A stretch of DNA of 64,000 nt from Anaerolineae bacterium (GTDB lineage: Bacteria > Chloroflexota > Anaerolineae > S140-20): assembly GCA_027021705.1 (NCBI GenBank), contig JALUTT010000059.1, positions 32,001-96,000 on the forward strand. The letters are read 5' to 3'. Within the stretch, counting starts at the first letter, position 1, and every line of letters begins with the position of its first letter. Below are positions 31,213-41,022 of this stretch, piece by piece. The position numbers and the translations under genes are program-made. Below the pieces are notes generated by a model, which had not been told where the DNA came from, made no database searches, and worked only from the letters and a program-made list of their open reading frames with translations.

Positions 31213-31815
31213 ATGAGCCCTCGTCCCGACGTCAGCGAGCAGCGCAAGGACCAGATCCTCGACGCCGCCATCAACGTCTTCGCCCGGCTGGGCTTCCACA
31301 AAGCCCGGATGGACGACATCGCCCAGGAGGCCGGCCTGAGCAAAGGGGCCCTCTACTGGTACTACAAGGGGAAGGACGCCATCATCGCCGCCCTCCTGGA
31401 CCGCATCTTCGCCTGGGAGATGAAGGACCTGGAGGCCGTCCGCACCGCCGAAGGGCCGGTCGGCGACCGGCTGCTGGACCTGACCCGCCGGATGGCGGCC
31501 TATATGTGGCGCCTCTCCCTCCTCCTGCCCATCGCCTTCGAGTTCTACGCCGTCGCTGCCCGACAGGAGTCCGTGCGCCGTGCCCTGCAGCGCTACTTCC
31601 AGACCTACCGGGAGGCGATGGCCGACCTCATCCGGCAGGGCGTAGAGCGAGGGGAGTTCCACCCTGTGGATGCGGAGGAGGTCGCCATCACCTTCATCGG
31701 GCTCTTTGAAGGGCTCTTTCTCCTGTGGGCCGTGGACCCCCAGGCGGTGGACCTCCCCCAGGTCGGAGAGGTGGCCGTCCGCCTGTTGCTGGACGGTCTG
31801 AGAGCCAAGGAGTGA
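31213..31815 (+). CDS. TetR/AcrR-family regulator
   Basis: ILDAAINVFARLGFHKARMDDIAQEAGLSKGALYWYY HTH. Confidence 0.95.
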   Translation: MSPRPDVSEQRKDQILDAAINVFARLGFHKARMDDIAQEAGLSKGALYWYYKGKDAIIAALLDRIFAWEMKDLEAVRTAEGPVGDRLLDLTRRMAAYMWRLSLLLPIAFEFYAVAARQESVRRALQRYFQTYREAMADLIRQGVERGEFHPVDAEEVAITFIGLFEGLFLLWAVDPQAVDLPQVGEVAVRLLLDGLRAKE

Positions 31816-31818
31816 GCG

Positions 31819-33450
31819 ATGGCCACCGTCTTTATGAAGTGGTTGGAGACCAGCCCCCGCGACTACGACCGGGGCATCCGGCTTCTCACCCTGGGCCGGC
31901 TCCAGACCCTCCAGGAGGAGATCGCTCGCCGGTACGTGGGCGAGGGCACCCGGGTGCTGGAGGTCGGCTGCGGCACGGGCACGCTGGCCACCTTGATGGC
32001 CGCCCGGGGCGCACGGGTCACCGCCATTGACGTCTCCCCGGCGATGCTGGCCGAGGCCCGCAAGAAGGTCGAGGCCCAGGGGCTGGAGGGGCGGGTGACG
32101 CTGCTGCCCCTGGAGGCGGCGCTGATCGGTGAGCGCTTCCCGCCCGCCAGCTTCGACCGGATCGTCTCCACCCTCGTCTTCAGCGAGCTGCCCCCCGACG
32201 AGCAGCGCTACGTCCTGGAGGCCTGCGCCCGGCTGCTGGCCCCCGGCGGTCGCCTGCTCATCGCCGACGAGGTGGTGCCCACCTCCCGGCTCGCCCGCCT
32301 GCTCTACGTCCTCGTCCGGCTCCCGCTGATGCTGCTGACCTGGCTGCTCACCCGCACCACCACCCACGCCCTGCGCGATTTCGAGGCCCTGCTGACCCAG
32401 ACCGGCTTCCGCGTCCGCCACCGTCTCGCCTACCTGGGCGGCAGCCTGGTCCTGTACGAGGCCGTCCCCGTCGCCGAAGCGGAGGAGGTGGAGGAGGCCG
32501 AGTTGCCCCCCGGCGTCGTCGGGCGTCTGCGCCACCGGACGACCCTGCGCACCCGGCTCCTGGACCTGTGGGCCCTCTTCTTCCGCATCGTCCCGCCCTA
32601 CCCCAAGGTCCGCCCCGGCCTCTACGCCGTCGGCAACCCCGGCCCCGAGGCCCCCGTCCTGGTGACCGGCAACTTCGACCTGACGGTGCGCCGGCTGGTG
32701 CGGGCCCTGGACGGTCGCCTCGACGCCTGGGTGCTGGTGGCCGACTCGGCCGGCATCAACGTCTGGTGCGCGGCCGGCGGGGGCTTCTTCACCGCCGAGA
32801 AGGTGATCGCCGCCGTGAAGACCTCCCGCCTGGGCGAGATCGTCCGCCACCGCGCCCTCATCCTGCCCCAGCTCTGCGCCAACGGTGTGGACGGCTGGAA
32901 GATACGCCGGGAGACGGGCTGGGGGGTCCACTGGGGGCCGGTGCGGGCGACCGACATCCCCGCCTACCTGGCCGCCGGCCGCAAGAAGGACGACGCGATG
33001 CGCCTGGTCCGCTTTCCCCTCAAGGACCGGCTGGAGATGGTGACCGTCACGCTGGGCTTCTACGGCCTGCTCCTCCTGCTGCCCATCTTCCTCTTCTGGC
33101 GGCACCTCTTCGGCCCGGTGGCCCTCAGCCTGATCGGCCTCTCCTACTTCTACGCCGTCGTCCATCCCTGGCTGCCGGGGTGGGATGGCCTGGCCAAGAG
33201 CGTGCCCCTGGCCGCCATCGCCCTGGCCGGGATGCTGGTTTACACCCTCCTCTGGGACCCGGTCCCGCCGTCCCACCTCTTCAACCGAGTGCTGGGGATG
33301 ATCGCCCTCTCCGTCTTCACCGGCGCGGAGCTGCAGGGGATGTCTCCGCTGATGCGGGGGGAGCAGGCCAACTGGGGCTGGGAGGCGGCCATCGGTGCGG
33401 TCCTGGCGCTGGCCTGGTGGCTGGTGCCTCTGGCCATGGGCTGGAGGTGA
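31819..33450 (+). CDS. Fusion: class I SAM methyltransferase + HgcA/CdhD-like corrinoid-binding domain + ~5 TM helices
   Basis: VLEVGCGTG; PGLYAVGNP..PVLVTGNF, GINVWCAAGG, LILPQL, WGPVRA; hydrophobic C-terminus. Confidence 0.9.
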   Translation: MATVFMKWLETSPRDYDRGIRLLTLGRLQTLQEEIARRYVGEGTRVLEVGCGTGTLATLMAARGARVTAIDVSPAMLAEARKKVEAQGLEGRVTLLPLEAALIGERFPPASFDRIVSTLVFSELPPDEQRYVLEACARLLAPGGRLLIADEVVPTSRLARLLYVLVRLPLMLLTWLLTRTTTHALRDFEALLTQTGFRVRHRLAYLGGSLVLYEAVPVAEAEEVEEAELPPGVVGRLRHRTTLRTRLLDLWALFFRIVPPYPKVRPGLYAVGNPGPEAPVLVTGNFDLTVRRLVRALDGRLDAWVLVADSAGINVWCAAGGGFFTAEKVIAAVKTSRLGEIVRHRALILPQLCANGVDGWKIRRETGWGVHWGPVRATDIPAYLAAGRKKDDAMRLVRFPLKDRLEMVTVTLGFYGLLLLLPIFLFWRHLFGPVALSLIGLSYFYAVVHPWLPGWDGLAKSVPLAAIALAGMLVYTLLWDPVPPSHLFNRVLGMIALSVFTGAELQGMSPLMRGEQANWGWEAAIGAVLALAWWLVPLAMGWR

Positions 33451-33454
33451 GGCG

Positions 33455-33727
33455 ATGTCAGAAGCGATGTCGGAGGAACGGACTTTCTGGTCGGCGCTGG
33501 CCGAACACTGGCGGATCGCCCGCACGCTGCGCAGCCTCACCATCCACTTCTACCCGGAGCGGTGCAAGGGCGTTTGGGAGTGCTACGAGGTCTGTCCGGT
33601 GGGCTGCTGGACCCCCGACTACGAGCGGCGGGTGGTCCGCTTCCACGACCCGGAGCGCTGCATCGCCTGCGGGGCCTGTGTGCTCCAGTGTCCCGAAGCC
33701 GCGATCGAGCTGAAGCCGGGAGGGTGA
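33455..33727 (+). CDS. Dicluster-type ferredoxin in the HgcB-like position
   Basis: CKGVWECYEVCP and CIACGACVLQCP; ATG 33455 follows GGAGGTGA. Confidence 0.9.
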   Translation: MSEAMSEERTFWSALAEHWRIARTLRSLTIHFYPERCKGVWECYEVCPVGCWTPDYERRVVRFHDPERCIACGACVLQCPEAAIELKPGG

Positions 33728-33757
33728 AGCCGGCTCTGGCGAGAAGGGAGGTACCCC

Positions 33758-34030
33758 ATGGTCTGGATCGTGCTCTTCCTCGTCTGGATCGTCGGGGGTG
33801 CGCTCATCGGCTGGGGCGTGCCCAAGCTCTTCAAGAGCGAGCCCCCCTATGGATTGGCGGTGGACCTGCTGGCCAGCATCCTCGCCACCGTCCTCCTGGG
33901 TGTGGCGGAGTGGGCGTGGATTCTGCCGGCCCTGGGCTTCACCGGTCCGTTGAAGCTGGGCACGGCTCTCGCAGATCCCTTGGGCCTCTCCCTCATCATC
34001 CTCTGGCTCCTGCGTCGGGCCAAGGGGTAG
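33758..34030 (+). CDS. Small 3-TM membrane protein
   Basis: 90 aa; three hydrophobic segments; GGAGG RBS. Confidence 0.8.
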   Translation: MVWIVLFLVWIVGGALIGWGVPKLFKSEPPYGLAVDLLASILATVLLGVAEWAWILPALGFTGPLKLGTALADPLGLSLIILWLLRRAKG

Positions 34031-34039
34031 AGGGGGGCG

Positions 34040-35179
34040 ATGAACCTGCGGCGGACCTTGGCGGTGATGCGCAAGGAGAGCTGGCACGTCCTGCGGGACC
34101 GGACCGCCTTCTCTCTGACGTTGCTCTCGCCCGCCTTCCTGCTGGTGGCCCTGGCCTATACCCTCTCCATTCAGGTGCGGGAGGTGGCCGTGGCCGTGCT
34201 GGACGGGGATCGGACCCTCCTCTCCCGCCAATACGTCCAAGGGCTGGGGGCCAGCGGCGACGTGGTGGTGCGCTATCGGGCGGACGATTACGTCCAGGTC
34301 AAGCGCTGGCTGCTGCACGGCCAGGCCAAGGCGGCGGTGATCATCCCGGCCGGCTTCGAGGCGGACCTGCGGGCCGGACGCCAACCCGCCCTCCAGGTGC
34401 TGGTCGAGGGCACCGATCCCAACGCGGCCAACGTGGCCTTGGCCCACATCAGCGGCTACAGTCAACGCTTCATCGCCCGCCTGGCTGCCCGGACGCTGGC
34501 ACGGGCCGGCCTGCCGGCTCACCAGAGCGGCCTGCTGCCTGTGGAACTGCGCCTCCGCGTCTGGTACAACCCGACCCTGAAGCTGCTCTTCGGCCTCCTG
34601 CCGGCCTTCATCGCCGTCGTCCTGGGGATGCCGGCCGTCGCCGCCACCACTGCCCTGGTGCGGGAGAAGGAACAGGGCACCTTTGAGCAACTCGTCGCCT
34701 CCCCCATCGGCCGCGCCGAACTGATCGTCGGCAAGCTGGTCCCCTACATCGTCAGCGGGATGCTCAGCACCTTGCTCTGTACCGCCGTAGCCGTCTTCTG
34801 GTTCGGCGCCCCCTTCCGGGGGAGCTTGGGCCTCTACCTGCTCCTCTCGGCCGACTTCTTCTTGGCGACGATGGCCATCGCCCTCATCATCTCGGCCCTT
34901 ACCGGCACCCAGCAGGCCGCCCAGATCGGCGCCGTGATGATCTTCTTCTTCCCCGGTCTCTTCCTCTCCGGCATCTTCTACCCCATCTTCAGCATGGAGC
35001 CGATGATGAAGATGGAAGCCCTCATGGTGCCGACGACCCACTATGTCTTCATCGGCCGGGGCATCTTCCTGAAGGGGCAGGGGATGGCGCTGCTCTGGCC
35101 CTACGCGCTGGCCTTGCTGGTGATGGGATTCCTCTTTCTGAGCATGGCCGTCCTGCTCTTCCGCAAGCGGTTGGGGTAA
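34040..35179 (+). CDS. ABC-2 exporter permease (YbhS-like)
   Basis: RKESWHVLRD, WYNP, REKEQGTFEQL, SGIFYPI. Confidence 0.92.
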   Translation: MNLRRTLAVMRKESWHVLRDRTAFSLTLLSPAFLLVALAYTLSIQVREVAVAVLDGDRTLLSRQYVQGLGASGDVVVRYRADDYVQVKRWLLHGQAKAAVIIPAGFEADLRAGRQPALQVLVEGTDPNAANVALAHISGYSQRFIARLAARTLARAGLPAHQSGLLPVELRLRVWYNPTLKLLFGLLPAFIAVVLGMPAVAATTALVREKEQGTFEQLVASPIGRAELIVGKLVPYIVSGMLSTLLCTAVAVFWFGAPFRGSLGLYLLLSADFFLATMAIALIISALTGTQQAAQIGAVMIFFFPGLFLSGIFYPIFSMEPMMKMEALMVPTTHYVFIGRGIFLKGQGMALLWPYALALLVMGFLFLSMAVLLFRKRLG

Positions 35180-35181
35180 CG

Positions 35182-36318
35182 ATGGGCTACCGCGTCTGGA
35201 ACCTCATCGTCAAGGAGTTGATCCAGCTCTGGCGGGACCGCCTCCTCGTCCTCTTCATCACGCTGGGGCCGGTGATGGAGTTGGTCCTGGTCGCCTGGGC
35301 GACCTCGGGTGAGATCGAGAGGATTCCCACGGCCATCGTGGACCTGGACCGCTCGCCGGCCAGCCGGTCGTTGGTCCAGGCCCTGGACAACAGCCGGACC
35401 TTCGACCCCCGCTTTTACCCCGACGACGTGGAGGCGGCCCAGGACCTGGTGGAGCGGGGGAGGACGCCGGTCGCCGTCCTCATCCCGCCCGACTTCCAGG
35501 AGCGGCTGGATGACCCGGTGCGTGGCCCGGCCTATGTCCAGGTCATCCTGGACGGCGCGGAGGCGAGCGTGGCCCAGACCGCCCTCCTGAGCGCCGAAGG
35601 GGTGGTGGGGAGTTACGCCCAGACGCGGATGGAGACCCGGCGGGGCCAGGTCGCGGCCCTCTCGGTCCCGCTGCCGGCGCTGGAGCTGCGGGTGCGGACC
35701 TGGTTCAACGAGGCGCTGAAGCTCTCCTACTACGAGGTGCCCTCGGAACTGGGCTTTATGCTCATCGGTGTGGCCCTGATGATCTCCTCGCTGGGCATCG
35801 CCCGCGAGCGGGAGCTGGGGACGCTGGAGCAGCTCCTGGTGACGCCGATGCGGGGGATCGAGCTGGTGATCGGCAAGGCGGTGCCGGCCATCGTCCTGGC
35901 CTACGTGGACTTCCTCCTGATGCTGGGCTTGGTGCTCTACCTCTTCCACATCCCGATGCGGGGTTCCTTTGCCTTGCTGCTGACCATCGCTCTCTTCTAC
36001 CTCCTCGTCGAGATCGGGTGGGGGCTGATGATCTCGGCCATCTCCCGCACCCAGTGGCAGGCGTTGCTTCTCGTCTTCTCCCTGATGATGGGGGAGATGA
36101 TCTTCTCCGGCTACGCCTCGCCGGTGGAGAACATGCCTTGGCTGCTGCGCAACGCGGCCAACCTGGTGCCCATCAAGCACTGGCTCATCATCCTGCGCAG
36201 CATCCTGCTCAAGGGAGCGGGCGTGGAGGTCTTCTGGCGGGAACTGCTGGCCCTGGCCGGGCTGGGGGTGGTGATCAACCTGTTGACCCTCACCGTCCTG
36301 CGCCGACGGCTGGAGTAA
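35182..36318 (+). CDS. ABC-2 exporter permease (YbhR-like)
   Basis: KELIQLWRD, RERELGTLEQLLVTP, PVENMP. Confidence 0.92.
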   Translation: MGYRVWNLIVKELIQLWRDRLLVLFITLGPVMELVLVAWATSGEIERIPTAIVDLDRSPASRSLVQALDNSRTFDPRFYPDDVEAAQDLVERGRTPVAVLIPPDFQERLDDPVRGPAYVQVILDGAEASVAQTALLSAEGVVGSYAQTRMETRRGQVAALSVPLPALELRVRTWFNEALKLSYYEVPSELGFMLIGVALMISSLGIARERELGTLEQLLVTPMRGIELVIGKAVPAIVLAYVDFLLMLGLVLYLFHIPMRGSFALLLTIALFYLLVEIGWGLMISAISRTQWQALLLVFSLMMGEMIFSGYASPVENMPWLLRNAANLVPIKHWLIILRSILLKGAGVEVFWRELLALAGLGVVINLLTLTVLRRRLE

Positions 36319-36397: not shown

Positions 36398-36511
36398 GAC
36401 CACCCGACCACCTGACCAAGTGACCAAGTGACCATTCGACCACTCGACCACCCGACCAAGTGACCAGGCGACCAAAGACCGAGGACTGAGGACCAAGGAC
36501 TGAGGACTAAG
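36398..36511 (+). repeat. Compound short tandem array: 9 x GACCANNN, then 6 x GACYRAR
   Basis: Units read directly: 8-mers at 36398-36469 and 7-mers at 36470-36511. Confidence 0.9.
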
Positions 36512-36525
36512 TGAGGAGGGAACTT

Positions 36526-37059
36526 ATGGCAGAGAAGACCTCTCCCTTCAAGCAGATGAAGCCGCCGCGTGGGCTGCGGGCCATCCCGTGGCGGCTGCCC
36601 ATCTGGCTCTACCGGCTTCGTCTGGGCTGGCTGCTGGGGAATCGCTTCCTGCTCCTCACCCACATCGGGCGGGTGAGCGGCCGGCCCCGCCAGGCGGTGC
36701 TGGAGGTCGTCCGGCACGATCCAGAGAGCGATACGTACTACGTCGCCTCCGGCTTTGGGGAGAAGTCGCACTGGTTCCGCAACATCATGAAGACGCCGGA
36801 GGTCACCATCCAGGTAGGGCGGCGACGGATCGAGGCGGTGGCGGAGCGGTTGCCGGTCGAGGAGGCGGAGCGCGAATTGGCGGACTACGCCCGGCGCAAC
36901 CCCCGCGCCTTCCGCACCCTGACCCGCCTCCTGGGCTATCAGGTCGAGGACCTGGAGGAAGGGGCCCGCACGATGGCCCAATGGATTCCCATCGTCGCCT
37001 TCCGCCCTCGCCGGGGAAGCGGGGATCGGGAGTCACAGACTGCTGATCAACGGCGTTAA
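36526..37059 (+). CDS. Nitroreductase-family deazaflavin (F420)-dependent oxidoreductase (DUF385-like)
   Basis: LLLTHIGRVSGRPR, VASGFG..SHWFRNI..TPEVTIQVG; ATG 36526 follows AGGAGG. Confidence 0.85.
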   Translation: MAEKTSPFKQMKPPRGLRAIPWRLPIWLYRLRLGWLLGNRFLLLTHIGRVSGRPRQAVLEVVRHDPESDTYYVASGFGEKSHWFRNIMKTPEVTIQVGRRRIEAVAERLPVEEAERELADYARRNPRAFRTLTRLLGYQVEDLEEGARTMAQWIPIVAFRPRRGSGDRESQTADQRR

Positions 37060-37245: not shown

Positions 37246-37860
37246 ATGGCCTGGCGAGACGCCCTTCGTGAACAACGCCGGATGGCGATCCTAGAGGCGG
37301 CGGCCCGCGTCTTCGCCCGCAAGGGCTACCAGCGGGCCACGATGCGCGAAGTCGCGGCCGAGGCCGGCATCGCTCCCGGTACCATCTACCTGTACTTTCA
37401 CAACAAACGGGACCTTCTCCTGAGCATCGCCGAGCGGCTGGTGGGGGAGATCGGCCGGCTGCTGGTCCAGCCTCCCGAAGGAGAACTGCGCCCCTTCATC
37501 GCAACGCTGTTGCGCAACCAATTGGAGATGATGCGGCGCAACCGCCCCTTCACCCGCGTTCTGCTCACCGAAGTGATGACCGATGAGGCACTGCGCCGCC
37601 AGTACCAGGAGCGGGTCGTGGCCCCGGTGCTGGCCCAACTGGAGGCCCGCCTGCAGGCCGGCGTCGAGGCCGGGGAGGTCCGTCCCCTCAACGCCTCCAT
37701 CGTCACCCGCGCCATCGTGGGGGCGGTCGTCTTCCTGCTCCTCTCCGCCGGGGAGCCCTTGGGCGACTTCTTGGCCGAGGAGCGCCAGGACGAGGTGGTC
37801 GCGGAGCTGACCGACTTTTTCCTCTGTGGCCTGCAGCCGTGTAAGGGGGAGGAGGGATGA
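37246..37860 (+). CDS. TetR/AcrR-family regulator
   Basis: ILEAAARVFARKGYQRATMREVAAEAGIAPGTIYLYF. Confidence 0.95.
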   Translation: MAWRDALREQRRMAILEAAARVFARKGYQRATMREVAAEAGIAPGTIYLYFHNKRDLLLSIAERLVGEIGRLLVQPPEGELRPFIATLLRNQLEMMRRNRPFTRVLLTEVMTDEALRRQYQERVVAPVLAQLEARLQAGVEAGEVRPLNASIVTRAIVGAVVFLLLSAGEPLGDFLAEERQDEVVAELTDFFLCGLQPCKGEEG

Positions 37861-38978
37861 TCGAGCGGACGCTGACGGTAATGCGCAAGGAGTTCCTCCA
37901 CATCCGGCGGGACCCGCGCACGCTGATCATTATGTTCCTCATCCCCGTCATCCAGTTGATCCTGCTGGGCTACGCGGCCACCACCGACGTGAAGCACATC
38001 GCCACGGCGGTGCTGGACTACGACCGCTCGGCCCAGAGCCGGGAGCTGGCCGCCACCTACCAGGCGTCCAACTACTTCGACCTGGTGCGCTACGTGGACG
38101 ACGAGGAGACGCTGGCCTACCTGCTGGATCGGGGGGAGGTGCGGGCCGGGTTGATCATCCCCGCCGGCTACGGCGAAGATGTCGTCGCCGGACGCCCGAC
38201 CAACATCGCTTTCATCATTGACGGCTCCGATCCCAATGTCGCCAACACCGTCTTCTCCGCCTCCCAGTCCGTGGGGCAGGCCCACAACCTGCGACTGATC
38301 GAGCGCCGGTTCGGCACCGCCGCCGAGGACCTGCCCGGCGTCCAGGTCCACCCCCGGGTCTGGTACAACCCGGAGATGAAGAGCGTCAACTTTATGATCC
38401 CCGGCCTGATGGCGATGGTCCTCTTCCTGCTCACCACGATGCTCACCTCCCTCTCCATCGTGCGGGAGCGGGAGCGGGGGACCATCGAGCAGTTGATGGT
38501 CACCCCCATCCGGCCCATCGAGTTGGTGGTGGGCAAGGTGGTGCCCTACGTCGCCGTCGCCTTCTTCGACCTGCTGGAGGTGCTGACCATCGGCGTCTTC
38601 TGGTTCGGCGTGCCCATCCAGGGCAGCGTGTTGCTCCTGCTGGCCCTCTCGGGGGTCTTCCTGATGACCTCCCTGGGATTGGGTATCTTCGTCTCCAGCG
38701 TCGCCAACACCCAGCAGGAGGCGATGTTCATGGTCTGGCTGATGCTCTTGCCGTCCATCTTCCTGGCCGGCTTCTTCTTCCCCATCGAAGCTATGCCGCT
38801 GGCGCTGCGGATGCTGAGCTACCTCGTGCCGCTGCGCTACATGCTCGTCATCTTCCGGGGCGTCATCATGAAAGGCGTGGGGCTGGGGGTGCTGAAGGAG
38901 CAGGTCGCCGCCTTAGCCCTCTTCGGCCTCGTCATCATGGTGCTGGCCGCCACCCGCTTCCGCAAGCGGCTGGAGTGA
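37857..38978 (+). CDS. ABC-2 exporter permease
   Basis: RKEFLHIRRDPR, WYNP, RERERGTIEQLMVTP. Confidence 0.93.
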   Translation: MIERTLTVMRKEFLHIRRDPRTLIIMFLIPVIQLILLGYAATTDVKHIATAVLDYDRSAQSRELAATYQASNYFDLVRYVDDEETLAYLLDRGEVRAGLIIPAGYGEDVVAGRPTNIAFIIDGSDPNVANTVFSASQSVGQAHNLRLIERRFGTAAEDLPGVQVHPRVWYNPEMKSVNFMIPGLMAMVLFLLTTMLTSLSIVRERERGTIEQLMVTPIRPIELVVGKVVPYVAVAFFDLLEVLTIGVFWFGVPIQGSVLLLLALSGVFLMTSLGLGIFVSSVANTQQEAMFMVWLMLLPSIFLAGFFFPIEAMPLALRMLSYLVPLRYMLVIFRGVIMKGVGLGVLKEQVAALALFGLVIMVLAATRFRKRLE

Positions 38979-39123: not shown

Positions 39124-40053
39124 ATGGAACCTCAACCCATCATCGAGATGCGGGACCTCACCCGGGCTTTCCGGGGCAGGGTCGCCGTGGACCACCTGAA
39201 CCTGACCATCTATCGGGGCGAGATCTTCGGCCTGGTGGGGCCGGACGGAGCAGGCAAGACGACGACCATCCGCCTGCTGGCCGGCATCATGCGTCCCACC
39301 GAGGGGACGGCCATCGTCGCCGGCCACGACGTGGCCCGGGACCCGGAGGCGATCAAGACCCGCATCGGCTATATGGCCCAGCAGTTCAGCCTCTACGGGG
39401 ACCTGACGGTGCTGGAGAACCTGAACTTCTTCGCCGACATCTACGAGGTGCGCGGGCGGGAGCGGGAGGCCCGCATCGAGCGGCTGCTCCGCTTCGCCCG
39501 GCTGACGGAGTTCACCGGTCGGCGGGCCGCCCACCTCTCCGGCGGGATGCAGAAGAAGCTGGCCCTGGCCTGTGCCCTCATCCACCAGCCGGAGATCATC
39601 TTCCTCGACGAGCCCACCACCGGCGTGGACCCTGTCTCTCGCCGGGAGTTCTGGGAGATCCTCACCGAACTGCACCTGGAGGGGGTGACCATCTTCGTCA
39701 GCACGCCCTACATGGACGAGGCCGAGCGCTGCTCCCGGGTGGGGCTGATCTACGAGGGGCGGATCATCGTCTGCGACGTGCCGGGCAAGGTGCGGGGGAT
39801 GGTCCAGGGCGACCTGCTGGAACTGCGCCCTGACGACTTCCGGCGGGCGCGACAGCTTATGGAGACGCTGGAGGGGGTACTGGAGGTTCAGACCTACGGG
39901 GACCTGCTCCACGTCTTCGTAGACGATGCGGACCGGCGGCAGGAGACGGTGGCGAAGGCGCTCCGGGAGGCCGGCATCGGCTTCACCGGCTTGCGCCAGA
40001 CCCGTCCTCGAATGGAAGAGGCCTTCATCTCGTTGATCCGGCGGCAGGAGTGA
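39124..40053 (+). CDS. ABC exporter ATP-binding protein
   Basis: GPDGAGKT, LSGGM, LDEPT, STPYMDEA. Confidence 0.95.
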   Translation: MEPQPIIEMRDLTRAFRGRVAVDHLNLTIYRGEIFGLVGPDGAGKTTTIRLLAGIMRPTEGTAIVAGHDVARDPEAIKTRIGYMAQQFSLYGDLTVLENLNFFADIYEVRGREREARIERLLRFARLTEFTGRRAAHLSGGMQKKLALACALIHQPEIIFLDEPTTGVDPVSRREFWEILTELHLEGVTIFVSTPYMDEAERCSRVGLIYEGRIIVCDVPGKVRGMVQGDLLELRPDDFRRARQLMETLEGVLEVQTYGDLLHVFVDDADRRQETVAKALREAGIGFTGLRQTRPRMEEAFISLIRRQE

Positions 40054-40062
40054 GCGCGTCCT

Positions 40063-41022
40063 ATGGGGGAGCAACCGACGGCGGACCGTCACGCCATCAT
40101 CACCAAGGACCTGACGAAGAAGTTCGGTGACTTCACGGCGGTGGACCACGTCACCTTCAGCGTCCGGCGGGGGGAGATCTTCGGCTTCCTGGGGCCGAAC
40201 GGGGCCGGCAAGACGACGACCATCCGCATGCTCTTGGGGCTGCTCCGCCCCACCGAAGGGACGGCCTGGGTCCTGGGCTACGACATCCGGGGGGATGTGC
40301 GGGCGATGCGGGAGCGCATCGGCTACATGTCTCAGCGCTTCACCCTCTACCGAGACCTGACGGTGGACGAGAACCTGAACTTCTACGGCCAGGCTTACGG
40401 GGTGCGGGGGGAGCGGCTGCGGCAGCGGAAGGCGGAGATCGTCCAGATGGCCGGCCTGGTGGGGCGGGAGCGGGAACTGACGAAGAACCTGGCCGGTGGC
40501 TGGCGTCAGCGGCTGGCCCTCGGCTGTGCGATGGTCCACGAGCCGGAACTGCTCTTCCTGGATGAGCCGACGGCGGGGATGGATCCGGTCTCCCGGCGGG
40601 CCTTCTGGGACCTGCTCTACGAGCTGGCCGAGGGCGGGACCACCATCTTCGTCACCACCCACTACATGGACGAAGCGGAGCATTGCCACCGGCTGGCCTT
40701 CATCTATGCCGGGCGCATCGTCGCCCTGGGCTCCCCCCAGGAGATCAAAGAGACGGTGATGCAGGGGCAGGTGCTGGAGATTGACTGCGATCAGCCGGAC
40801 CGGGCGCTCCAGATTCTACGGACAACGGGGCACTTCGACGAGGTGGCTCTCTACGGGGCGCTCATCCACGTCGTGGCCCCGGAGGTGGATCGGTATCGGG
40901 GGGAGATTCAAGCCCTGCTGAGCGGAGAGGGCATCACAGTGCACAGCATGGATGTCATCGCCCCATCGTTGGAGGACGTCTTCATCTCCAGCGTGCGTCA
41001 ACAGGAGCAGCGGGCGGGATAA
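40063..41022 (+). CDS. ABC exporter ATP-binding protein
   Basis: GPNGAGKT, LAGGW, LDEPT, TTHYMDEA. Confidence 0.95.
   Translation: MGEQPTADRHAIITKDLTKKFGDFTAVDHVTFSVRRGEIFGFLGPNGAGKTTTIRMLLGLLRPTEGTAWVLGYDIRGDVRAMRERIGYMSQRFTLYRDLTVDENLNFYGQAYGVRGERLRQRKAEIVQMAGLVGRERELTKNLAGGWRQRLALGCAMVHEPELLFLDEPTAGMDPVSRRAFWDLLYELAEGGTTIFVTTHYMDEAEHCHRLAFIYAGRIVALGSPQEIKETVMQGQVLEIDCDQPDRALQILRTTGHFDEVALYGALIHVVAPEVDRYRGEIQALLSGEGITVHSMDVIAPSLEDVFISSVRQQEQRAG

Follow-up and report, generated by a model that had tools for sequence, protein, structure and literature searches.

The current study deals with a stretch of 64,000 nucleotides from an Anaerolineae bacterium (Chloroflexota; GenBank assembly GCA_027021705.1, contig JALUTT010000059.1, positions 32,001 to 96,000 of the forward strand), which is referred to as the window throughout. 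It carries a gene whose product joins an S-adenosylmethionine (SAM)-dependent methyltransferase of the CpaM type (corrinoid protein-associated methyltransferase) to a corrinoid-type domain and a membrane domain resembling those of the mercury methylase HgcA, and directly behind it a gene for a small ferredoxin (Table 1). The fusion gene is a conserved, lineage-specific rearrangement of a catalogued, uncharacterized module and does not represent a new system. The novelty implied in a preliminary description of the locus, which had been drawn up from the sequence alone, was thus overstated: NCBIfam already names both halves and their partnership, and triple fusions as well as unfused forms exist. 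A literature search outside subscription journals and closed supplements found no paper on the CpaM partner or on the present arrangement, and the available part of the preprint 10.1101/2022.07.06.499078 contains 0 occurrences of CpaM or of the fusion family. A "fused HgcAB" clade is already in print (Podar 2015, Capo 2022, Lin 2023).

Table 1. Features of the module and of its surroundings (positions counted from the first nucleotide of the window; related loci are defined in the text)
Feature	Position	Strand	Remarks
TetR-family regulator	31213..31815	+	Pfam TetR_N 4.4e-16, TetR_C_6
Fusion gene: CpaM-type SAM methyltransferase, HgcA-like corrinoid domain, and five transmembrane helices	31819..33450	+	543 aa
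CpaM domain, class I SAM methyltransferase	31828..32463	+	residues 4-215; NCBIfam NF043040
Acidic linker between the halves	32473..32502	+	residues 219-228; low confidence, AlphaFold2 pLDDT <50
HgcA-like part	32563..33369	+	residues 249-517; NF043039, Pfam CdhD
Cap-helix motif GINVWCAAGG	32752..32781	+	residues 312-321; read in the DNA
Five predicted transmembrane helices	33019..33438	+	residues 401-540; AlphaFold2 model
Ferredoxin, 2x[4Fe-4S] type	33455..33727	+	90 aa, 8 conserved Cys; Pfam Fer4/Fer4_7
Hydrophobic membrane protein	33758..34030	+	90 aa, no family match; homologue in 9/77 related loci
ABC-2 type exporter permease	34040-35179	+	Pfam ABC2_membrane_3, 3.1e-45
ABC-2 type exporter permease	35182-36318	+	Pfam ABC2_membrane_3, 9.3e-39
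Deazaflavin-dependent nitroreductase family protein	36511..37059	+	PF04075 / TIGR00026
Second TetR-family regulator	37246-37860	+	
Third ABC-2 permease	37857-38978	+	
DrrA-like ABC ATPase	39124-40053	+	
DrrA-like ABC ATPase	40063-41022	+	

The reading frame of the fusion gene, as read from the window sequence, begins with ATG and ends with TGA at 33448-33450. Its N-terminal half contains the SAM-binding motif of class I methyltransferases (VLEVGCGTG, residues 46-54) and is recognized by the Pfam model Methyltransf_25 (residues 46-144, E 3.7e-21), while the Pfam model CdhD matches residues 263-383 (E 2.1e-13). The cap-helix motif is encoded by the codons ggc atc aac gtc tgg tgc gcg gcc ggc ggg, of which TGC at 32767-32769 specifies Cys317, the presumed lower axial ligand of the cobalt. 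In an alignment of 54 homologues, G50, G52, G54, and D113 of the methyltransferase and W316 and C317 of the cap helix are invariant, and D71 is conserved in at least 90% of the sequences. The family models identify both halves. CpaM (NF043040) is matched with 296.9 bits against a cut-off of 180 over profile positions 3-214 of 216. The model of the HgcAB-like fusion protein (NF043039) is matched with 272.6 bits over positions 3-284 of 350; this score falls under the cut-off of 285 because the ferredoxin part of the profile (positions 287-349) sits on a separate protein, namely the window ferredoxin, which covers these positions with 66.3 bits. Fusion protein and ferredoxin jointly cover the profile. 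By contrast, the scores against the models of true HgcA (NF040863, 191.6 bits) and HgcB (NF040864, 50 bits) stay below the respective cut-offs of 275 and 99.

The closest sequence match of the corrinoid part in the PDB is the gamma subunit of a corrinoid iron-sulfur protein (CFeSP; 2h9a, 1.3e-15, residues 263-384 versus 319-439), and CFeSP large subunits are the only solved relatives that were detected by sequence. An AlphaFold2 model of the fusion protein based on 54 homologues has a mean predicted local distance difference test score (pLDDT) of 87.6 and a predicted template modeling score (pTM) of 0.60. In a Foldseek comparison of folds, the deposited HgcA model 9a0b_A ranks first (E 2.4e-14, 33% identity), followed by ordinary class I methyltransferases, e.g., Coq5 and bacterial phosphatidylethanolamine N-methyltransferase (PEMT). 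The modeled N-terminal half is of the Rossmann type, with a long helix at residues 157-178; the corrinoid-type domain exhibits a short helix at 315-321 that bears W316 and C317, and the C-terminal part consists of the long helices 401-426, 428-451, 457-478, 484-504, and 515-540.

The ferredoxin gene begins with an ATG at 33455, 4 nt (GGCG) behind the stop codon of the fusion gene, and a GGAGG sequence overlaps the end of the latter; the ferredoxin is a separate gene that is translationally coupled to the fusion gene. A ferredoxin homologue lies next downstream on the same strand in 67 of the 68 related loci that have at least 300 nt behind the fusion gene, the single exception being L077, the most distant locus. 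With respect to the cluster motifs, the second one of the window ferredoxin is canonical (CX2CX2CX3CP), whereas the first one is the variant CX5CX3CPX2C, in which the Cys behind CP appears to stand in for the missing second Cys. This variant is present in 61 of the 67 family members with a recognizable second motif (69 sequences were extracted), whereas the first motif of the ferredoxin tails of fused HgcAB-like proteins remains canonical. The sequence of the window ferredoxin has no Cys past the second motif, and when the 67 relatives were read row by row, such a residue was found in L015 alone, further apparent cases being due to reads across a stop codon or to matches with the first motif. 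Hence, what the preliminary description had reported for this pair of genes, i.e., a 543-aa frame uniting a class I methyltransferase, a GINVWCAAGG domain, and about five transmembrane helices, a retained Cys codon at 32767-32769, and a ferredoxin 4 nt past the stop, agrees with the reading frames, the motifs, the Pfam matches, the AlphaFold2 model, and the invariance of C317.

The fusion is not an assembly artefact, as had been considered in the preliminary description for the case that full-length homologues were missing. When 5.8 billion protein clusters were searched and 8000 candidates scored, 1305 hits were obtained at E <= 0.001. At least 120 homologues are full length (536-569 aa, 99-100% query cover, 69-99% identity), and the methyltransferase and CdhD domains are both present in all 120 that were listed. 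A scan with one genome per species yielded 93 relatives, of which 77 distinct loci were kept (the related loci of this study), and 66 of these contain the full-length fusion gene. The 120 full-length homologues and the ferredoxin in 67 of 68 loci show that the layout is a conserved trait of the family. Contigs from an independent study span 31213-32544 and 32659-34020 and leave out 32545-32658, hence they are silent on the fusion junction. According to their labels, nearly all of the 77 loci originate from metagenome-assembled genomes (MAGs) of Chloroflexota, i.e., Anaerolineae, Anaerolineales, Ardenticatenales, Caldilineae, and Promineifilaceae. Copies with 61-69% identity to the window protein were observed on short contigs of MAGs labeled Methanosarcinales and Kiritimatiellales (L056 and L065), which could reflect mis-binning or gene transfer. 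The distribution of CpaM is patchy: among the 401 Chloroflexota genomes that were sampled, just three, G000 being one, have a match at E 1e-30, and two of the three exceed the cut-off of the family. In the order to which the window belongs, one of four genomes has such a match.

To survey the architectures of the wider family, residues 240-543 were compared exhaustively by HMMER with 1.84 billion representatives, and 1209 proteins were found at E <= 0.001. Among 67 of the 150 listed representatives, which were scanned with NCBIfam (most short fragments were left out), 13 are true HgcA over the cut-off, 40 have HgcAB-like as best match and no CpaM, seven combine CpaM, the corrinoid and transmembrane part, and the ferredoxin in a single chain of 582-644 aa, and a further seven resemble the window protein in comprising CpaM and the corrinoid and transmembrane part without ferredoxin (P0122, P0125, P0126, P0128, P0198, P0208, and P0260). 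Each of the 13 proteins that exceed the HgcA cut-off has a cap helix reading ...WCAAGK, whereas none of the 53 non-HgcA representatives with a recognizable motif ends in K, most of them ending in G. The replacement of K by G, which had been noted as a peculiarity of this locus, is indeed present in the window (GG), but it is not local and must be regarded as a mark of the whole paralogue group.

The partnership of CpaM with HgcAB-like proteins was further investigated on metagenome contigs. A pattern-based scan with an alignment of 30 HgcAB-like proteins resulted in 591 confirmed stretches, of which the best 80 loci, which are not a random sample, were searched with a hidden Markov model (HMM) of the CpaM domain. 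In 69 of the 74 loci with a non-K cap helix the presence of CpaM could be assessed, either by sufficient upstream DNA or by a hit; it is located directly upstream in 54, fused in 12, and missing in three. Where adjoining, the CpaM gene is on the same strand as the HgcAB-like gene, 62 CpaM hits in the non-K loci reach at least 100 bits, and the ferredoxin is encoded in the same frame for most of the 69 HgcAB-like loci. None of the six K-type (true-HgcA-type) loci contained CpaM, five of them with more than 1.3 kb of upstream DNA. The CpaM/HgcAB-like partnership is thus near-obligatory. The general reading of the preliminary description (SAM methyltransferase, HgcA-like corrinoid and transmembrane protein, ferredoxin behind) is borne out by the profile scores and the architecture survey, and so is its statement that HgcA-like paralogues are mostly fused to the ferredoxin with a separate methyltransferase (54 separate versus 12 fused), which makes the window genes the reciprocal case. 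Individual loci of the metagenome survey have further neighbors: a small PEMT-type membrane methyltransferase upstream (L087:128-502 and L089:1966-2316) and a LolA-like protein downstream (L087:2341-3132 and L089:4152-4619) of the HgcAB-like gene, and, in single cases, adjoining metal genes (L093, L100, and L103: P-type ATPase plus Nramp, ArsP-type permease, and Metal_resist).

A quick maximum-likelihood tree of 62 corrinoid and transmembrane parts (296 columns), rooted with the CFeSP of the window's own genome as outgroup, recovered true HgcA as a single clade with an SH-like approximate likelihood ratio test (SH-aLRT) support of 99. The window protein clusters with P0122, P0125, P0126, and P0128 (SH-aLRT 99), and the resulting clade attaches to the HgcAB-like sequences with an SH-aLRT of 94. 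On the tree, the three-part fusions occur in several separate places, requiring seven changes, at least five of them by well-supported branches, and the CpaM fusion must therefore have arisen repeatedly. The preliminary description had also considered a position inside the canonical HgcA clade; in this tree the window clade is placed clearly outside true HgcA, but a sister position to the latter was not rejected (see below). P0198, P0208, and P0260 are deep-branching fusions of CpaM with an HgcA-like part at the base of the tree, where their order is not resolved. Their HgcA and HgcAB-like profile scores are close and in P0260 even reversed; these proteins could inform on the origin of HgcA.

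Upstream of the fusion gene, the stop codon of the TetR gene (TGA, 31813-31815) is located 3 nt ahead of the ATG, which is preceded by AAGGAG. The gaps of 3 nt and 4 nt show that TetR, fusion gene, and ferredoxin are packed as one unit. Organic ligands are typical signals of TetR regulators. Among the related loci, 21 of 64 have a homologue of the PF04075 protein, which in most cases directly follows the ferredoxin; an ABC-2 homologue occurs in 17 of 77, an MFS exporter within about 1 kb in five loci, and a MATE exporter in one. If generic ABC ATPase hits are included, 32 of the 63 loci whose flanks extend over 5 kb or more have an exporter-type homologue within 5 kb, but the ATPase hits at 3-4.5 kb may be due to chance. 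TetR, exporter, and PF04075 neighbors are mostly absent next to the closest relatives of the window protein. Overall, the context of TetR and exporters is a hint, though not a strong one, that part of the lineage uses the module for inducible modification and export. At one locus a further separate class I methyltransferase of 220 aa (L003:5890-6549) is located between TetR and the fusion gene.

The genome of the window comprises 5.19 Mb (94.9% complete, 4.5% contaminated) and contains no second HgcA-like gene. A CFeSP-like gene is encoded elsewhere (C92:62442, 451-aa frame) and adjoined by a frame of 502 aa (L079, C92:60942-64322); four proteins with a B12-binding domain score over the cut-off. 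No match to CofH of F420 synthesis was found in this approximately 95% complete genome, and the use of F420 by the PF04075 neighbor is therefore doubtful. Two studies have hydrothermal-vent metagenome runs that contain the stretch, and one of these studies is possibly the source of the DNA; none of the data sets listed for 31213-34030 is RNA.

With the domain identities, the conservation of the key residues, the coupling of the genes, and the CpaM partnership established, a reaction sequence can be proposed. The two [4Fe-4S] clusters of the ferredoxin would generate Co(I) from the corrinoid that sits beneath the Cys317 cap helix; the tethered CpaM domain would bind SAM and methylate Co(I), giving methyl-Co(III) and S-adenosylhomocysteine; and the methyl group would then be received by an acceptor located at the five-helix membrane domain or within it. 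The TetR repressor and the exporters alongside would fit an inducible modify-and-export system in this genome and part of the lineage. The paralogue module shares the corrinoid, Cys, and ferredoxin parts with HgcAB and has in addition a dedicated SAM-binding enzyme, and the simplest reading is that CpaM would hand the methyl group of SAM to Co(I) while the membrane domain presents the acceptor. Such a relay from SAM via cobalamin to an acceptor is plausible, given the use of SAM by HgcAB as a precedent. In purified HgcAB, SAM methylates Co(I) that has been made through the HgcB clusters, which act as electron conduit; the Cys thiolate then binds under the cobalt, and the methyl group departs as radical or carbanion. 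SAM is a stoichiometric donor, and with Co(III) as the proposed final state of each turnover, two electrons are needed (PMC11588087). On balance, we regard it as probable that the window genes are a rearranged CpaM/HgcAB-like module, i.e., of the sister group of the mercury methylase HgcAB, and that this module drives a Co(I)/SAM methyl relay to a membrane acceptor.

Several points weigh against this explanation. Corrinoid binding, SAM binding, the direction of transfer, and the acceptor are assigned by homology, in the case of the corrinoid to CFeSP and HgcA. Since HgcAB uses SAM without a separate methyltransferase, CpaM may not methylate cobalt. The mutual placement of the two halves is not fixed by the AlphaFold2 model, whose pTM is just 0.60, and a complex prediction of residues 1-218 versus 240-543 with a score of 0.00, run without controls, is evidence for neither side. 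The placement of the window clade is not robust: it may lie within the fused forms or be the sister of HgcA, as a tree uniting it with true HgcA was not rejected in the approximately unbiased (AU) test (log-likelihood difference 0.30, p 0.49). The ferredoxin of the window lineage may accordingly have been split off or may never have been fused. The genomic context is partial: a TetR gene on the same strand immediately precedes the fusion gene, at a distance of <200 nt, in 17 of 69 related loci, and an ABC-2, MFS, or MATE homologue lies nearby in 23 of 77. Across the wider family there is no common partner, the 91 flanking frames comprising three TetR_N proteins, nine transporter-type proteins, and otherwise unrelated ones. 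Finally, CobS and CbiD had no match in the genome of the window, which, at about 95% completeness, leaves their absence unproven; the corrinoid would accordingly need uptake, and the organism probably takes up corrinoids and uses them without making the cofactor.

The resemblance to HgcAB raises the question of whether the window encodes a genuine mercury methylase, i.e., a Chloroflexota form of HgcAB with its own SAM-binding domain. The Cys cap helix, the five transmembrane helices, and the ferredoxin as a gene of its own are features shared with HgcAB, and the AU test did not reject a sister position to true HgcA. However, the scores for HgcA and HgcB are both well under their cut-offs, and the cap helix is devoid of the K that all 13 proteins over the HgcA cut-off carry; with NVWCAAGG it fails the high-stringency list of HgcA cap helices, N(V/I)WC(A/S)(A/G/S)GK (PMC10087281). 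The window ferredoxin also lacks the C-terminal Cys pair of HgcB: nearly every HgcB ends in Cys-Cys (preprint 10.1101/2022.07.06.499078), and C73, C94, and C95 of HgcB are reported to be important for methylation (PMC11588087). The regulator linked to hgcAB is ArsR-like, whereas a TetR-type regulator is present here. Organisms with HgcAB-like genes of the fused type made no methylmercury (PMC10087281, PMC4646819), but Podar et al. pointed out that the lack of methylmercury in Pyrococcus furiosus is no proof against catalysis by the fused protein. The acceptor is probably not Hg(II), and we consider a mercury methylase very improbable.

Two further explanations retain the Co(I) chemistry but assign other roles to the parts. 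In the reactivation of methionine synthase, SAM and a low-potential electron donor re-methylate oxidized cobalamin, and the combination of SAM-binding domain, low-potential carrier, and corrinoid domain in the window corresponds to this set. Methyltransferase and ferredoxin could by analogy be a repair unit only, serving reductive reactivation, while the main cycle moves the methyl group between other donors and acceptors. The pairing of the parts suits repair as well as the favored explanation, and the operon requires no other methyl-donor enzyme. This is nevertheless unlikely, as no recurrent second methyltransferase (MT1/MT2-type or MeTr-type) was detected in the 91 flanking frames or the 77 loci, and HgcAB uses SAM stoichiometrically, with Co(III) as the proposed end state of each turnover (PMC11588087). 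Alternatively, the corrinoid half may perform Co(I) chemistry other than methyl transfer, e.g., the reductive dehalogenation of halomethanes, with the methyltransferase acting directly on substrate or product. TetR regulators and exporters would suit organic toxicants, and the window DNA occurs in the hydrothermal-vent metagenome runs of the second study (with a word share of 0.64 for X2 and 0.56 for X3). Heterologous HgcAB dechlorinates CCl4 and trihalomethane according to a 2026 preprint (10.64898/2026.04.26.720869), which, however, is unreviewed and deals with true HgcAB. The near-obligatory pairing and the repeated fusion of CpaM are hard to explain without a hand-over between the halves, and such dehalogenation thus appears quite doubtful.

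The favored methyl relay has implications for the whole superfamily. The donor of HgcAB was settled as SAM only in 2024, and the native role of HgcAB and its paralogues is still being sought; the fusion of a SAM methyltransferase to a corrinoid protein, repeated across lineages, is strong comparative evidence for the use of SAM by the paralogue group. As a tentative idea, for which we claim no high probability, the CpaM-corrinoid pairing could be the older and general state of the HgcA superfamily, i.e., SAM-driven, cobalamin-mediated membrane methylases for a toxic non-mercury substrate, with a Chloroflexota form that is induced by TetR ligands and coupled to efflux, and true HgcAB as a derived form that lost CpaM. 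If so, other soft metals or metalloids or an organic electrophile would be candidate substrates, and HgcAB, having lost CpaM and binding SAM itself, would account for the "unexpected" SAM dependence reported in 2024. The Chloroflexota form, a compact two-gene construct with an adjoining regulator, is suited to biochemistry. Due to the NVWC cap helix, genes of this kind could pass for mercury-methylation genes in metagenome surveys.

Comparison with known corrinoid systems helps to delimit the module. The window protein shares a homologous corrinoid-binding domain with the large subunit of CFeSP (AcsC/CdhE; 2h9a, 4c1n, 4djd), but CFeSP is soluble, lacks the Cys cap helix (aligned GTSVLTAWAAG), and receives its methyl group from methyl-tetrahydrofolate. 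The reactivation module of methionine synthase likewise brings SAM and a low-potential carrier to a protein-bound cobalamin; its AdoMet domain in MetH has no sequence relation to CpaM, which is a class I Rossmann fold, and the window protein, unlike methionine synthase, is predicted to be membrane-bound and Cys-ligated. With HgcA and HgcB (NF040863/NF040864) the window system has in common the CdhD/CFeSP-type corrinoid domain with its Cys cap helix, the five transmembrane helices, and a ferredoxin of the 2x[4Fe-4S] type that is encoded by its own gene next downstream. It differs from them by profile scores under both cut-offs, by G for K in the cap helix, by a ferredoxin without Cys past the second cluster motif, and by the presence of CpaM, which is absent from the six true HgcA-type loci; the N terminus is formed by the SAM methyltransferase, whereas most HgcA have an N-terminal CU-motif extension (10.1101/2022.07.06.499078). 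SAM as methyl source is shown for HgcAB (PMC11588087) and would by homology apply to the window system as well. The closest counterpart is the CpaM plus HgcAB-like module (NF043040 and NF043039), with which the window genes agree in both families by profile score, in a cap helix ending in G, and in the order of methyltransferase, corrinoid and transmembrane part, and ferredoxin. Unlike in the usual form of this module, methyltransferase and corrinoid protein here share one chain, while the ferredoxin is encoded on its own, and the first motif of this ferredoxin is CX5CX3CPX2C instead of the canonical one of the fused tails, and the window form constitutes a clade of its own (SH-aLRT 99) that is almost confined to Chloroflexota.

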